From the NCBI RefSeq assembly GCF_000698785.1, contig NZ_CP007536.1, forward strand, positions 2,250,001-2,282,000: a stretch of 32,000 nucleotides of DNA, written 5' to 3'. The DNA comes from Nitrososphaera viennensis EN76 (GTDB lineage Archaea; Thermoproteota; Nitrososphaeria; Nitrososphaerales; Nitrososphaeraceae). Below, piece after piece: positions 1 through 11,330 of this stretch; the stretch's first letter is position 1; every line of letters starts with the position of its first letter. Position numbers and translations under genes: made by a program. Below the pieces are notes generated by a model. The model was not told the origin of the DNA and ran no database searches. It saw only the letters and a program-made list of their open reading frames with translations.

Positions 1-59
1 TGCAGGCGTACGAGATGCGGCTTGACAGCGAGGGCGAGATCTACAGCGACAGCACCTAG
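1..59 (+). CDS. 3' end of an upstream element gene (partial; ...QAYEMRLDSEGEIYSDST*)
   Basis: Frame 3 is open from the window edge to the TAG at 57-59. That TAG forms the first 3 nt of the recurrent TAGTTCT motif. Confidence 0.35.
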   Translation, partial: QAYEMRLDSEGEIYSDST

Positions 60-67
60 TTCTATAT
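57..67 (+). promoter_or_regulatory. Element junction motif copy (TAGTTCTATAT)
   Basis: Exact TAGTTCT. The TAG is the stop codon of the upstream partial gene. The next ATG is at 66. Confidence 0.4.
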
Positions 68-365
68 GTGTAAAAAAGATGGTGAGTATTTGGGAGCATT
101 GGACCACATCAACAGAGAAGAGTTCCAGAATTTCCGCCAGGATGCCGGCGAGCACTTCAAGATGCTGCACGAGTGCGACAGGCGCATAGAGCGCAAGATA
201 GACGAGCTTGCCGCCCTGCTGGAGCCCGTGCTTGACGAGCACGCCCAGAGCATGGAAAGCAGGCGCGGCAGGCGTGAGGTCAAGATGCTTGCGATAGGCG
301 CCGCCCTTGGCGCGTTCTTTAGCGCAGTGACAGCCGCGATGCTGCTTCTTTTCCAGCTGGGCTAG
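66..365 (+). CDS. Small tail-anchored protein with a charged coiled-coil-like N-terminal part and one C-terminal TM helix
   Basis: 99-aa ORF with an ATG start. The hydrophobic C-terminus is MLAIGAALGAFFSAVTAAMLLLF. The gene ends in the junction-motif TAG. Confidence 0.6.
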   Translation: MCKKDGEYLGALDHINREEFQNFRQDAGEHFKMLHECDRRIERKIDELAALLEPVLDEHAQSMESRRGRREVKMLAIGAALGAFFSAVTAAMLLLFQLG

Positions 366-373
366 TTCTTTTT
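363..373 (+). promoter_or_regulatory. Element junction motif copy (TAGTTCTTTTT)
   Basis: The TAG is the stop codon of 66..365. The first T lies 35 nt before the ATG at 398. Confidence 0.5.
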
Positions 374-397
374 GCCCTTTTTCTGCAAGAGACTTTC

Positions 398-607
398 ATG
401 AGCGATCCATCCGTAGAAAAAGTGAGCCTGAACGCCAAGGAGATAATCCTTGCAATAGTGGTGTCTGCCGGGGCAGTCACGGCCCTGGTCTCTGCCGGCG
501 CGCTCTGGACCGGACACGCAGAGATAGCGGAAAAGGCGGGCCTTGCGTTTGTGAGCGGCATCGTGGGCTTTGGCGCGGGCATCGTGACTGCGCTGTGGGG
601 CCGCTAG
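398..607 (+). CDS. Small two-TM membrane protein (holin-like in size and topology only)
   Basis: 69-aa ORF with two hydrophobic segments. The ATG lies exactly 35 nt after the motif at 363, and the gene ends in the motif TAG at 605. Confidence 0.6.
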   Translation: MSDPSVEKVSLNAKEIILAIVVSAGAVTALVSAGALWTGHAEIAEKAGLAFVSGIVGFGAGIVTALWGR

Positions 608-615
608 TTCTTTTC
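605..615 (+). promoter_or_regulatory. Element junction motif copy (TAGTTCTTTTC)
   Basis: The TAG is the stop codon of 398..607. An in-frame GTG at 641 lies 36 nt downstream. Confidence 0.45.
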
Positions 616-631
616 TGGTTTTCTTTCATTT

Positions 632-1120
632 TTGTTGTTTGTGGGAGCAGCAGTAGAACATCTGTGCTTTACATTCGATGTCTGCGTAGTTGGTTTTGGA
701 CATTCTTCCTTAAGATGCATTGAATGTGGTCTTGTACTTGAAACTGAAAACTGTAAATGGGTTGCAATTGACGGCAGGCCAATATGCATAAAACATCATC
801 ATGATATCACATACACAGACGTTGAGAAAAACTATTCCAAGTTTATTGCAGGTACAACCAAACGTAATTTTACATTTGATCCGGAAACTGGAAAGGCATA
901 CGATGCAACTGATCCTGAATGCGCAAAGAAATTTTACGAAATATATGGAGACCGTAAAAACAACGTCGCCTTAATTGCCATAACTAATAATAGATCTAAT
1001 AGTCTGAATGATACTACAAAAAGAGCATTTCATAAACTGCAAAAAGAACAAAAAGATCGTTCGTTGGGAGGTGGATATCTGATGGAAACAAAACATACAC
1101 CGATATATCCTTCGCTGTAG
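632..1120 (+). CDS. Hypothetical Cys/His-containing protein inside the AT-rich insert
   Basis: ORF with only non-ATG starts available: TTG at 632/635 or GTG at 641. It contains CIECG...C...C.KHHH, a possible zinc-binding pattern. Its composition is clearly more AT-rich than the neighbouring genes. Confidence 0.4.
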   Translation: MLFVGAAVEHLCFTFDVCVVGFGHSSLRCIECGLVLETENCKWVAIDGRPICIKHHHDITYTDVEKNYSKFIAGTTKRNFTFDPETGKAYDATDPECAKKFYEIYGDRKNNVALIAITNNRSNSLNDTTKRAFHKLQKEQKDRSLGGGYLMETKHTPIYPSL

Positions 1121-8789: not shown

Positions 8790-9178
8790 GCTTCCGGCAA
8801 TTGCGCAAGATTCCCGGCCTTGACAACATCGTCAAGGACCTTGCCGAAAAGCAGAACAGGGCGCAGGCCGAGGATGGCATAGAGGACCTCACGCTTTTCC
8901 GGCAGAACAGGGTCGACACCGACGCAATCACGTACGCGGACACTGAAAGCCACGCGGCAAACGGCGACAGGACGGATGCCGACGGCATTTCACTTGCTGA
9001 CGTGGAAACAGCGCTGGCGCAAAACAGACAGCAATTTGACGCAGATGGAGATTTCTTTTGCGGGAGCGGGGCTGTCATCAACGAAACCGACAAGCCTTCT
9101 GGAGCATTTGCAGGCGGCATTGGAAACTTCAACGAGCCGGACCAACCAGCCGTCGCGGACTTCTCCGATGCAGGGTAG
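8786..9178 (+). CDS. Acidic hypothetical protein
   Basis: 130-aa Asp/Glu-rich ORF with its start overlapping the upstream stop. Confidence 0.5.
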   Translation: MSFRQLRKIPGLDNIVKDLAEKQNRAQAEDGIEDLTLFRQNRVDTDAITYADTESHAANGDRTDADGISLADVETALAQNRQQFDADGDFFCGSGAVINETDKPSGAFAGGIGNFNEPDQPAVADFSDAG

Positions 9179-9193
9179 AGTGATGATGGGTAG

Positions 9194-10675
9194 ATGGCGC
9201 TAAAAAAGCTCAATGTACCAGGCGTCAATCCCGGCAGCGTGGACAAGCTGTACGGCGAGGACTGGAACCGGCTCGTCGACGCGCTGACCGGCAACGTTGC
9301 AGAAAACATAACCCTCACCGGCTTGTTCAAGGTCAGCCGTCCCAATGCTGATCTTGCTGAATTTGTGGATACGAGTGTCGGCGTCAAGCTGAAGGTGAGG
9401 CCAATAACCTCGGGCACGCGCTGGATGAGCTTTGACATTGATGTTGATGGCGGCGGCTATGTCACGGATGTGTTGCAGCTACGAGAGCAAGAAGTCAGAA
9501 TAAACCAGCAATGCAATATTTTGGCTAACGTTGAAAGTGTCTTCTCTGCCAAAAGAACGAGCACTGGCGCCGTAGGCTATGAGTTGGGCAGCAATGATGC
9601 CACTGGCGGCAACGTCTACATCGACTTGCATACAGACAGCGGCGACGGAGACTATAGGTCAAGAATTATCAGGAACAACGGCGCAAACGGCACTTTCGAT
9701 CTTCAGCAGACCGGCACGGGCGCCATTCGGCTCATTGGCGCCAACGTCAATGTTGATAGCGGAAAACAACTCTTTCTTGATGGCGGCGGCGATACTTACC
9801 TGAGCGAAGTAGCAGCTAACCAGCTGCGTGCAACGGCAGGCGGCGCCGAGGTATGGACGGCTGTGCAAACGGCCCTTAATGTAGTGCAGGATCTCAAACT
9901 CGCCGCGGCAAAGAGGCTATACCTTGACGGTGGTGGAGACACGTACATCTATGAAAGCAGTGCAAACGTACTTGATTTTCTGGCTGGTAATATTTTGGCA
10001 ATGCGTCTAACTAATGTCAGCGCGTCTTTTGGCCAAGCCCTGACAATTCAAAATGATCAGGCTGACCTAATAAGGGCATACAGGCCAAATAACACGCCGA
10101 CAACAGGCAGTGGAATTCGGTTTGACCTTAACGATTCGGCAGGGAACCAAGAAGCGTATGCATTGATATACGGTATAATTGTCACCAACACAAACGGCGC
10201 CGAGGATGGCAAACTCTCGTTTAGGACAAAGAAAGCAGGCACTATGAAGAACTGGATGGAATTGCTGCAAGATGGAACATTCAGGATCTACGAAGATGCA
10301 GGCATTAAAAGCGTCTCTTTGAGACATGACGGCAATAATGCCATTCTTGCGGTATCGTCTGGAGATCTAGTCCTCCAACCGGGAGCTAACGTTTCAATAC
10401 CTTCAACAAAGAAACTTTATCTCGACGGCGGCGGTGACACGTTCATCCATGAAGCCAGCGCCAATATGCTAGATATTGTAAGCGGTGGGAGCGTAGGCAT
10501 TTCGCTTCGTGGAACCGGCCAGGTATGGCTGAGGGCAGGAAGCGGCGCAGCCGACCCGACTGCAAGCGATATCAACGCTGGCTATGGGATGTGGTGGAAA
10601 AACACTACGGCAAACGAAGTCAGGCTGTGGTACAACGATGGCGGAACGATGAAGAAAAGCGCAGCCCTTGCCTGA
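9194..10675 (+). CDS. Tail fibre / receptor-binding-type protein with three LYLDGGGDTY repeats
   Basis: 493 aa, rich in Gly/Asn/Thr. It has three copies of K(K/R/Q)L(Y/F)LDGGGDT(Y/F)(I/L)xE(x)xAN. It is the last large gene of the module. Confidence 0.65.
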   Translation: MALKKLNVPGVNPGSVDKLYGEDWNRLVDALTGNVAENITLTGLFKVSRPNADLAEFVDTSVGVKLKVRPITSGTRWMSFDIDVDGGGYVTDVLQLREQEVRINQQCNILANVESVFSAKRTSTGAVGYELGSNDATGGNVYIDLHTDSGDGDYRSRIIRNNGANGTFDLQQTGTGAIRLIGANVNVDSGKQLFLDGGGDTYLSEVAANQLRATAGGAEVWTAVQTALNVVQDLKLAAAKRLYLDGGGDTYIYESSANVLDFLAGNILAMRLTNVSASFGQALTIQNDQADLIRAYRPNNTPTTGSGIRFDLNDSAGNQEAYALIYGIIVTNTNGAEDGKLSFRTKKAGTMKNWMELLQDGTFRIYEDAGIKSVSLRHDGNNAILAVSSGDLVLQPGANVSIPSTKKLYLDGGGDTFIHEASANMLDIVSGGSVGISLRGTGQVWLRAGSGAADPTASDINAGYGMWWKNTTANEVRLWYNDGGTMKKSAALA

Positions 10676-10676
10676 A

Positions 10677-10687
10677 TAATTCTCTAC
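10677..10687 (+). promoter_or_regulatory. Element junction motif variant (TAATTCTCTAC)
   Basis: It lies 4 nt after the TGA at 10673-10675 and 35 nt before the ATG at 10712. Confidence 0.45.
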
Positions 10688-10711
10688 TATCTCCTTTTTT
10701 CATTATCTGCC

Positions 10712-10981
10712 ATGCCAGAATTATTAACATTTCAACAAAAAGTCGACGCCTTTGTCAATGCTGCACGCAAGGTCGCAGACAGGGCAGAGGACTATGACCG
10801 CAAGATCCTGCGCGACGGCAATGGCAATGCAGCCAACCTTGCAGACCCTATTTTCGGCCTGTCAGAAACAGAAATCACGACCAAGCTCAAGATGCGCATA
10901 AAGCCAGAATGGGATAATTTCAGGCAGGCAGAAGCGACGATGCTCGCAGAGCTGCAAGGGATTGACGGCGCCATAGAGTGA
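10712..10981 (+). CDS. Small hypothetical protein
   Basis: 89-aa ORF. The ATG lies exactly 35 nt after the TAATTCT variant at 10677. Confidence 0.5.
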   Translation: MPELLTFQQKVDAFVNAARKVADRAEDYDRKILRDGNGNAANLADPIFGLSETEITTKLKMRIKPEWDNFRQAEATMLAELQGIDGAIE

Positions 10982-11250
10982 GGCAGATGAGCATGGAAAA
11001 CCAGACAGCAAGCAACGAAAAAAACGGCGTCTCTTACAAGGACCTCTTTGAGGCCGAGCAGAAAAAGCGCCAGGAAGCAGAGAAGGACCGCGACGAGCTC
11101 TTGGAAAAATACAATTCTGTGGTGCAAGACAGGGAAAAGGTCATCGCGTCGATACAGATGGTGTCTGTCAAGGCGGTTGCGGGCATGCTGTCTGACCTGC
11201 AAAGCATCGCAAGGCAGGCGCCGCGCTTTGAGGCGATGGAGCGCGGCTAA
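10978..11250 (+). CDS. Small charged coiled-coil-like protein
   Basis: The GTG at 10978 overlaps the upstream TGA. Alternative ATG starts are at 10987 and 10993. The protein is Lys/Glu-rich. Confidence 0.5.
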   Translation: MRQMSMENQTASNEKNGVSYKDLFEAEQKKRQEAEKDRDELLEKYNSVVQDREKVIASIQMVSVKAVAGMLSDLQSIARQAPRFEAMERG

Positions 11251-11330
11251 GCCTTGCCGGCACATCTCTTTTATCAATTAGCACTTTGCATGTAATTAGA
11301 AAGCATTATTTTGTTGGTATGGGGGAGCTG

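Follow-up and report, generated by a model that had tools for sequence, protein, structure and literature searches.

We analysed a window of 32,000 nucleotides from the soil archaeon Nitrososphaera viennensis EN76 (genome positions 2250001-2282000 of a single-contig genome of 2,527,938 bp and 52.7% GC), the first 11,280 positions of which carry 18 complete genes (e10 to e27 in what follows) together with the last 59 bases of e09, all on the plus strand. We are highly confident that this block is the tail-morphogenesis half of Nvie-Pro1, a virus-derived element with HK97-type, siphovirus-like organisation that is reportedly to be credited to Krupovic et al. 2011. EN76 is the main cultured model strain; to our knowledge, very little is known of the tailed viruses of ammonia-oxidising archaea, and the soil lineage has so far yielded no isolate of one. 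The original prediction, made from the sequence of the window, had described eighteen co-directional genes that form the tail module of a head-tail virus in a thaumarchaeon-like genome, perhaps Nvie-Pro1, and it was right in the count, the direction and the name.

The published coordinates of Nvie-Pro1 (CP007536 2242426..2262040; PMC6563490, supplementary file 3) settle the identity. The left number is exactly the first base of an open reading frame (ORF) at L001:12426-13109 (L001 being genome 2,230,001-2,250,000) and the right number is exactly the start codon of a minus-strand ORF at window 11639-12040. Because both numbers land on ORF ends in this way, we take the window to hold the right-hand 58% of the element. 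Nvie-Pro1 has been described as encoding the terminase's large subunit (TerL), a fusion of protease and major capsid protein (MCP) and all virion parts, without attachment (att) sites and without replication genes (PMC6563490). What we present is thus a re-discovery; the comparative details, namely the borders, the copies at the same locus in relatives, the frameshifted first gene and the CRISPR spacer, are new. Below, G-labels denote genomes of relatives, L034 and L035 are further records, and L038 is G210:C1; four unpublished genomes (G022, G041, G064 and G072) entered tallies only.

Tail genes of the window

The tail tube protein (2223-3101; 292 aa) matches PF18906 (Phage_tube_2; E 4.4e-24, 85.9 bits against a cut-off of 27) as well as phrog_290, and its ratio of nonsynonymous to synonymous divergence (dN/dS) is 0.20 relative to G066. 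Directly after it comes a chaperone pair (3101-3690) that consists of a G-like ORF (3101-3466) and an extension in the -1 frame (3400-3690). A slippery heptamer, C CCT TTG, lies at 3457-3463, one codon before the stop of the G-like ORF (3464-3466), and the resulting G-T fusion would be ~197 aa long. The -1 frame is open for 63-79 codons in each of five related elements, in which the heptamer position reads CCCTTTG (G066), CCCTTTT/TTTTTTA (G017) or TTTTTTA (G210, G061 and L035). The proteins of the pair are only 28-42% identical in related elements, yet the position of an X XXY YYZ heptamer is kept in six elements including that of EN76, and we regard this conservation as good evidence for a programmed -1 frameshift of the lambda G/GT type. 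The chaperone pair had been called originally, and the overlapping -1 ORF with a heptamer at the end of the G-like frame bears the call out.

The gene of the baseplate hub (6569-8185, ORF from 6548/6569; ~538 aa) probably starts at GTG 6569, a position to which we moved the start because of its spacing from the junction motif described below. A structural model built with 21 relatives (22 were found) had a pLDDT (predicted local distance difference test) score of 84.5 and matched the MuSo2 43-kDa tail protein 3cdd with a Foldseek probability of 1.0 (E 2.8e-12); further matches included Mu gp44 (1wru), T4 gp27, VgrG, 80alpha and the HFTV1 tail (9h4p), and in the ESM Atlas the cluster closest to it bears the name 'Baseplate protein'. 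The large protein that had been placed in the hub position is, by this predicted fold, a gp27/Mu gp44/Tal-like hub.

Downstream of the hub lie e23 (8226-8789) and e24 (8786-9178), which PHROG matches and orthology mark as conserved baseplate or fibre-base proteins: e23 has a match to phrog_5417 (E 6.4e-39) and weak ones to tail-fibre PHROGs, and the two are 78-80% identical to their counterparts in G017 and G210 and 40-46% identical to those in relatives of a second lineage, type B (see below). They are followed by a candidate fibre or receptor-binding protein of 493 aa (9194-10675) that carries three K-x-L-[FY]-LDGGGDT-[YF] repeats. As the earlier reading of a repeat-bearing fibre had it, the LDGGGDT repeats are present, at residues 191, 240 and 406; they are dispersed within the protein, and no tandem repeat was found in the DNA of the gene. 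Compared with G210, the first 44 aa are conserved (50% identity) and the remainder is 27% identical, and receptor-binding fibres typically combine a conserved base with a remainder that varies. The nearest ESM Atlas clusters of the fibre are all viral and some are tagged as tail fibres, which is a lead only. Searches of PDB sequences with the hub, the fibre and e23 returned no matches. The last two genes of the element, e26 (10712-10981) and e27 (10978-11250), are small ORFs, and in G210 an e27-like ORF is likewise the last gene, 212 bp from the host methylase gene. No family match to a sheath protein was found in the window or in the upstream ORFs, and every ORF longer than 300 aa is otherwise assigned; as no sheath gene is present, we take the tail to be non-contractile.

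Between the chaperones and the hub are three further genes. The first encodes a 125-aa gp10-like tail completion or Neck1 protein (3695-4072; phrog_5, E 2e-15), and phrog_5 was matched by all four of the gp10-like orthologues scanned. The second is the tape measure candidate (4108-5892; 594 aa), so called from its position after the chaperones and its central hydrophobic, Gly/Ala-rich stretch; lengths among relatives range from 427 to 663 aa. The third, e21 (5937-6533; 198 aa), ends in a C-terminal double zinc ribbon (PF13240/PF12773). It has no match in G066 or G210 and is placed before the tape measure gene in G017, and would best be regarded as a variable accessory gene and not as a conserved Dit protein. 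We also note that EN76 has distant paralogues of e23 (31% identical over ~100 aa) and of e21 (25% over the full length) elsewhere in its genome, at 81361-81708 and 314366-314881.

The left part of the module is made up of smaller genes. The window opens with the 3' end of e09 (1-59), which, translated across the window edge, belongs to a 165-aa ORF from genome 2249562 in head-tail connector position after the MCP gene, with orthologues in G066, G017 and G210. e10 (66-365) and e11 (398-607) are small, have hydrophobic, membrane-like segments and match no family in Pfam or PHROG; both are conserved in G066, G210 and G017. A cassette of lower GC (0.48-0.50; 632-1669) then comprises e12 (632-1120, Cys/His-rich), e13 (1217-1408) and e14 (1487-1669). 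These three are variable accessory genes: they have no counterpart at the same position in G066, G210 has an e14-like ORF at that position and e13-like matches elsewhere in its element, and an e12-like domain is fused to the C-terminus of the portal in G066, L034 and L035. Finally, e15 (1711-2190; 159 aa) is conserved and occupies a terminator or connector position before the tube gene; it probably starts at ATG 1711 and not at GTG 1672, because orthologues align from residue 13-14 and because a junction motif (1676) lies 35 nt ahead.

Head and packaging genes upstream

The original prediction had also placed capsid, portal and terminase genes, if present, to the left of the window, and TerL, portal and MCP genes are indeed found 0.5-7 kb to the left. 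TerL (L001:12977-14497) matches phrog_2 (E 1.4e-22), the Mu-type portal (L001:15293-16705) matches PF06074, and a 576-aa ORF (L001:17793-19523) is assigned as MCP from its C-terminal part, which matches major head PHROGs (phrog_267); all are on the plus strand. The whole element is ~19 kb long, from genome 2,242,18x to 2,261,25x, and consists of packaging, head and tail genes together with ORFs that have no family.

The first gene of the element (L001:12217-13109; genome 2242217-2243109) is one ORF of 305-318 aa in G066, G017 and G210. In EN76, comparison with these three orthologues reveals a single-base deletion near L001:12455 that splits it. Contigs from two independent 2024 RNA libraries cover the deletion site without difference, and because they agree we take the deletion to be a true feature of EN76 rather than a mistake in the original assembly. 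No family in Pfam or PHROG was matched by the first gene, which from its place before TerL may encode a small terminase. The tail genes of the EN76 copy are all intact.

As a separate observation, an ORF with a RelA/SpoT domain (PF04607, E 3.8e-20; L001:16617-17309, plus strand; genome 2246617-2247309) overlaps the 3' end of the portal gene in a patch of 41-43% GC. None is present between portal and MCP in G066 and G069, and in G210 fragments of one lie after the MCP gene.

A conserved motif at gene junctions

Many gene junctions of the element share a motif, TA[AG]TTCT[CT]N (TAGTTCTCT), which occurs in 14 plus-strand copies in the 20.2-kb element as against ~1 expected from its genome-wide density, and in the whole window 19 times as against 8.7 expected. 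Pattern matching finds ten plus-strand copies within the module (57, 363, 605, 1452, 1676, 2188, 4070, 6531, 8191 and 10677), and further copies lie upstream of the window, from genome 2244528 to 2249663. In nine of the ten window copies a start codon follows after 34-38 nt (the copy at 57 falls outside the count), and the motif usually takes in the stop codon of the preceding gene. In G210 and G066 the motif occurs 8 to 10 times apiece, and in nearly every case a start codon lies 33-40 nt downstream. The motif may be a dedicated promoter or some other regulatory site, and its position may fit a promoter for leaderless or short-leader transcripts.

RNA libraries from three studies contain the entire element, in one case on a single 22.5-kb contig, and since DNA carry-over is possible this is compatible with transcription without proving it. 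The evidence takes the form of contigs, so that depth cannot be used to rank the genes. Neither an excision joint nor a circular one appeared in these contigs, which does not by itself prove absence. Of the published accounts consulted, PMC7785015 does not mention virus genes, and PMC11705971, PMC11849493 and PMC9859776 contain nothing specific to Nvie-Pro1.

Borders of the element

We defined the borders by DNA searches of 60 genomes of the genus followed by comparison of the locus. The element sits between a 126-aa gene (L001:11736-12116, minus strand) and a tetrapyrrole methylase gene (12236-13033, minus strand; PF00590). The methylase gene is matched in at least 55 of the 60 genomes among the matches listed, and 57 of the 60 match some part of the 20-kb query. 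In G061, G016 and G048 the site is empty, a DUF72 gene lying 45-75 bp from the methylase, and in G006 the order is DUF72, 126-aa gene, 560 bp and methylase. Conservation in an empty-site genome extends to 17 bases upstream of the 126-aa gene.

On this synteny the right end would fall between window 11250 and ~11330, in better agreement with the originally predicted 11280 than with the published limit at window 12040. Relative to the published coordinates, the left end by synteny lies ~200-250 bp further left, which adds 78-82 N-terminal codons to the first gene, and the right end lies ~700-800 bp further left, which drops two minus-strand ORFs of 95 and 133 aa (11331-12040) that are within the published coordinates. 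These two ORFs are probably outside the conserved element: in G210 they are missing between e27 and the methylase, EN76 has three paralogues of the 133-aa ORF at other places in its genome, and relatives of this ORF lie beyond the methylase in G066, G045 and G210. We considered the 126-aa gene as a member of the element and rejected it, as it adjoins DUF72 in the element-free genomes G006, G044, G045 and G057, has a paralogue elsewhere in EN76 and is missing near other type-B copies; a 35%-identical relative lies near the type-B element of G061.

No tRNA gene was found within 90 kb of the element, no att-like repeat flanks it (10-12-bp chance repeats only), and no integrase or replication domain was found in any ORF scanned against Pfam and PHROG. 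A leftward extension of the sequence had been proposed as a check, and it has yielded the terminase, portal and capsid genes, and neither an integrase nor att repeats.

To the right the element adjoins archaeal housekeeping genes, as had been noted: the methylase is followed by a multicopper oxidase, PepSY proteins, parts of an ABC transporter, aspartate kinase, PCNA, a CDF transporter and PurD. Three observations concern the flanks. The multicopper oxidase and its small neighbour (window 13200-14601) have a 74%-identical duplicate (85% at the protein level) at genome 48393-49819. The methylase beside the G210 element (L038:5481-6265) reads in two frames (residues 11-128 and 111-263), which points to a frameshift or an assembly error. 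Finally, ~6.5 kb to the left of the provirus, a 200-bp direct repeat, 99% identical (genome 2228680-2228880 and 2235562-2235762), brackets ~6.9 kb of low-GC DNA (45-48%) that holds a 1295-aa ORF and may be another inserted element.

Relatives and divergence

Copies at the same locus are present in four other Nitrososphaera genomes. That of G210 is complete, from the first gene to the e27-like gene, on one 161-kb contig with the same host genes to its left; that of G066 is complete up to a contig end inside the hub gene; and that of G017 is split over four contigs. G003 has a remnant, in which the first ~2 kb, namely the first gene and TerL residues 1-414, are joined 278 bp from the methylase. 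In addition, G069 has head genes on a short contig. The element is missing at the site in G044, G045 and G006, which by their flanking genes are seemingly closer to EN76.

Between EN76 and G066, synonymous divergence (dS) is 0.74-1.30 for e02, portal, MCP, e09-e15, tube and hub, and 0.85-1.47 for five flanking host genes. Over the same pair dN/dS is 0.08-0.28 for portal, MCP, e11, e15, tube and hub, and 0.25-0.35 for the small genes e09 and e10. These values point to sustained purifying selection on the structural genes together with host-like divergence, with dS near saturation. Identities vary from module to module. TerL is 56% and portal and MCP are 76-80% identical to those of G066, the tube protein is 77% identical to that of G066 and 45% to that of G017, the block from G/GT to the tape measure is 30-43% identical, and the hub has its nearer counterparts in G210 and G017, that of G066 being more distant. 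Such mosaic identities point to exchange among elements.

Of 401 Nitrososphaerales genomes sampled, 21 encode a homologue of the hub, and these fall in 13 of 82 genera. Within the genus, four of the 36 sampled genomes besides EN76 have one, in one case at a different locus. A second lineage (type B), with hubs 40-49% identical, ends beside TFIIB-Gar1(-SRP19-S8e) in two independent records (L034:17905-20560 and L035:20453-21632) and is also found in G061, G230 and G016. G061 has an empty DUF72-methylase site and carries the second-type element, with ParB_N and ATPase genes before TerL, on another contig. No close sequence relatives were found outside Nitrososphaerales, and scans of IMG/VR (2.9 million viral contigs) by MCP or tube alignment found no relatives; a scan of metagenomes found five distant tube loci.

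A CRISPR spacer similar to the tube gene of a relative

EN76 has two CRISPR arrays in its genome. A 36-nt spacer (genome 1475604-1475639, in the array at 1475493-1478921) matches the tube gene of the distant relative L034 at 27 of 36 bases, with an exact core of 18 bases. The match falls at the orthologous site of the tube gene, and the spacer read in frame gives QLEIGELYSFE; the tube protein of EN76 itself has MLKTGEMYSFE there, with 22 of 36 bases identical. A same-size control of host DNA gave no spacer match at 72% or above, and we estimate ~0.01 chance matches of the length of the core. The match suggests that an unsampled member of this virus family invaded the EN76 lineage. The exact 36-nt spacer was not found in viral or metagenome contigs, and none of the five metagenome tube loci matches any EN76 spacer at 70% or above. 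A second candidate, a 17-nt core shared by another spacer with G003:C8, failed to extend and was dropped.

Discussion

We have found that the first third of the window is the right-hand part of a virus-derived element whose head and packaging genes lie immediately upstream. Several points weigh against this identification or against particular gene labels within it. No integrase or replication gene was recognised, which means no recognisable gene, about half of the ORFs being without any family. The gp10-like protein, originally assigned to the HK97 gp10 family, itself scores below the cut-off of PF04883 (HK97-gp10_like; 17.2 bits, cut-off 21.4, E 0.01); PF04883 is matched by six of seven orthologues (best E 1.1e-6), and the protein itself matches phrog_5. 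The labels of tape measure and fibre rest on position, composition, one orthologue match and language-model leads; for the 594-aa ORF, position and composition agree with the earlier call and an orthologue gives a match to phrog_1293 ('tail length tape measure protein', E 3e-7), and the ORF has no significant family match of its own in the Pfam and PHROG scans. No Dit-like protein was identified in the tail module, and e21 is not conserved in the Dit position.

A further question is what kind of element the EN76 copy is. Because integrase, replication and lysogeny genes were not found and the first gene is frameshifted, the copy is probably not an autonomous inducible virus. The fixed locus, the conserved integrase-less architecture and the purifying selection favour maintenance, and the patchiness, the mosaicism, the frameshift and the spacer speak for a lineage of viruses in the course of loss in some places. 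We tentatively lean to the latter, at somewhat less than an even chance: the element would be a defective, decaying provirus, derived from a temperate virus that has lost its integration and replication modules and whose morphogenetic genes are heading for loss. The split first gene in EN76 is what such decay would produce, as is the G003 remnant, with only its first ~2 kb and a TerL cut at residue 414; close relatives have lost the element, neither integrase nor att was found, and low-GC cassettes have been inserted. However, all 18 tail genes are intact, and a dN/dS of 0.1-0.3 over a dS of ~1 indicates long purifying selection and not neutral decay. The complete G210 copy has the same integrase-less architecture, which argues against a recent loss of these modules in EN76, and both the heptamer for frameshifting and the junction motif have been kept.

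It is possible, if on balance unlikely, that the locus is instead a domesticated cluster resembling a gene transfer agent (GTA), inherited vertically at a fixed site, kept under selection and packaging host DNA rather than propagating itself. A GTA-like possibility has already been raised for Nvie-Pro1 (PMC6563490). The element consists of structural and packaging genes only, ~19 kb of them, with no integrase, replication gene or att found; it occupies one site, from the 126-aa gene to the methylase, in EN76, G210, G066, G017 and the G003 remnant; head, tube and hub genes have a dS equal to that of flanking host genes with a dN/dS of 0.08-0.28; the whole element is present in the RNA libraries of three studies; and the second lineage is also at a fixed site, beside TFIIB-Gar1, in two independent records. 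The original prediction held that a locus without packaging, capsid or integrase genes upstream, and syntenic in all related genomes, would instead be a domesticated or non-viral tail-like system. Packaging and capsid genes are present and synteny is not universal; an integrase was not found, which keeps the domesticated alternative in play. Against a GTA-like cluster, the element is patchy in the genus, the hub occurring in 4 of 36 genomes besides EN76 and G044, G045 and G006 lacking the element at the site; the mosaic modules point to exchange among elements, a spacer of EN76 resembles a relative's tube gene, and the first gene is frameshifted in EN76. We note, too, that with dS near saturation a host-equal dS is a weak test and that the RNA contigs may include carried-over DNA.

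It is improbable that the EN76 copy works in full as an inducible temperate virus, with a host recombinase, host replication proteins or the like serving its integration and replication. The morphogenetic module is complete, the spacer match suggests that related DNA invades cells, and mosaicism is typical of exchanging viruses. Nevertheless, neither EN76 nor the complete G210 copy has integrase, att or replication genes that we could find, the presumed packaging-associated first gene is frameshifted, the RNA-library contigs have no excision joint and no relative is present among 2.9 million IMG/VR contigs. The tail-only, tailocin-like element that had been put forward as an alternative had in its favour only that the left edge of the window cuts off the head genes, and it can be dismissed, as TerL, portal and MCP genes lie contiguous and co-directional upstream and are kept with the tail genes in G210 and G066.

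Combining several of these threads, one could suppose that the same-locus elements are a vertically inherited, maintained GTA-like system with motif-driven, gene-by-gene expression, and that free relatives circulate and are met by CRISPR. We regard this as a speculative proposal that is rather unlikely to hold in full.

If particles are made, the tail could be assembled as follows, in an order that we infer by analogy with lambda- and SPP1-type tails. The hub (6569-8185), e23, e24 and the fibre (9194-10675) would form the tail tip. The G protein and the -1 frameshift product G-T (3101-3690) would chaperone the tape measure (4108-5892) while tube subunits (2223-3101) polymerise, and the tape measure would set the length of the tail at ~90 nm if 0.15 nm per residue holds. 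The gp10-like protein (3695-4072) and e15 would then complete the tail and join it to the head. The junction motif, 34-38 nt ahead of most starts, may place these genes under promoter-like control gene by gene. The comparative results offer handles on whether EN76 makes particles, and of which kind, and they are also relevant to the question of a GTA-like system in Nitrososphaeria.

The findings presented here match the published account of Nvie-Pro1, with its TerL, MCP and full set of tail genes and its lack of att and replication genes. Compared with the siphovirus tails of lambda, HK97 and SPP1, the module is alike in having a tube protein, a G/GT -1 frameshift heptamer, a candidate tape measure, a gp10-like protein, a hub/Tal and candidate fibres, and in having no sheath. 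It differs in that the gp10-like gene lies between the chaperones and the tape measure and not before the tube gene, in that a zinc-ribbon protein occupies the Dit position with no recognisable Dit, and in that a conserved motif of its own stands ahead of nearly every gene. RcGTA of Rhodobacter capsulatus and VTA of Methanococcus voltae resemble Nvie-Pro1 in being compact head-tail clusters at a fixed site, without integration or replication genes and under purifying selection, whereas Nvie-Pro1 is patchy, mosaic and frameshifted in EN76. Thaumarchaeal head-tail elements such as NCAV2-Pro1 and CalSub-Pro are highly divergent from one another (PMC6563490). They belong, with the haloarchaeal tailed virus HFTV1, to the same overall class as Nvie-Pro1, and the structural matches to the Nvie-Pro1 hub include 9h4p, a tail protein of HFTV1.

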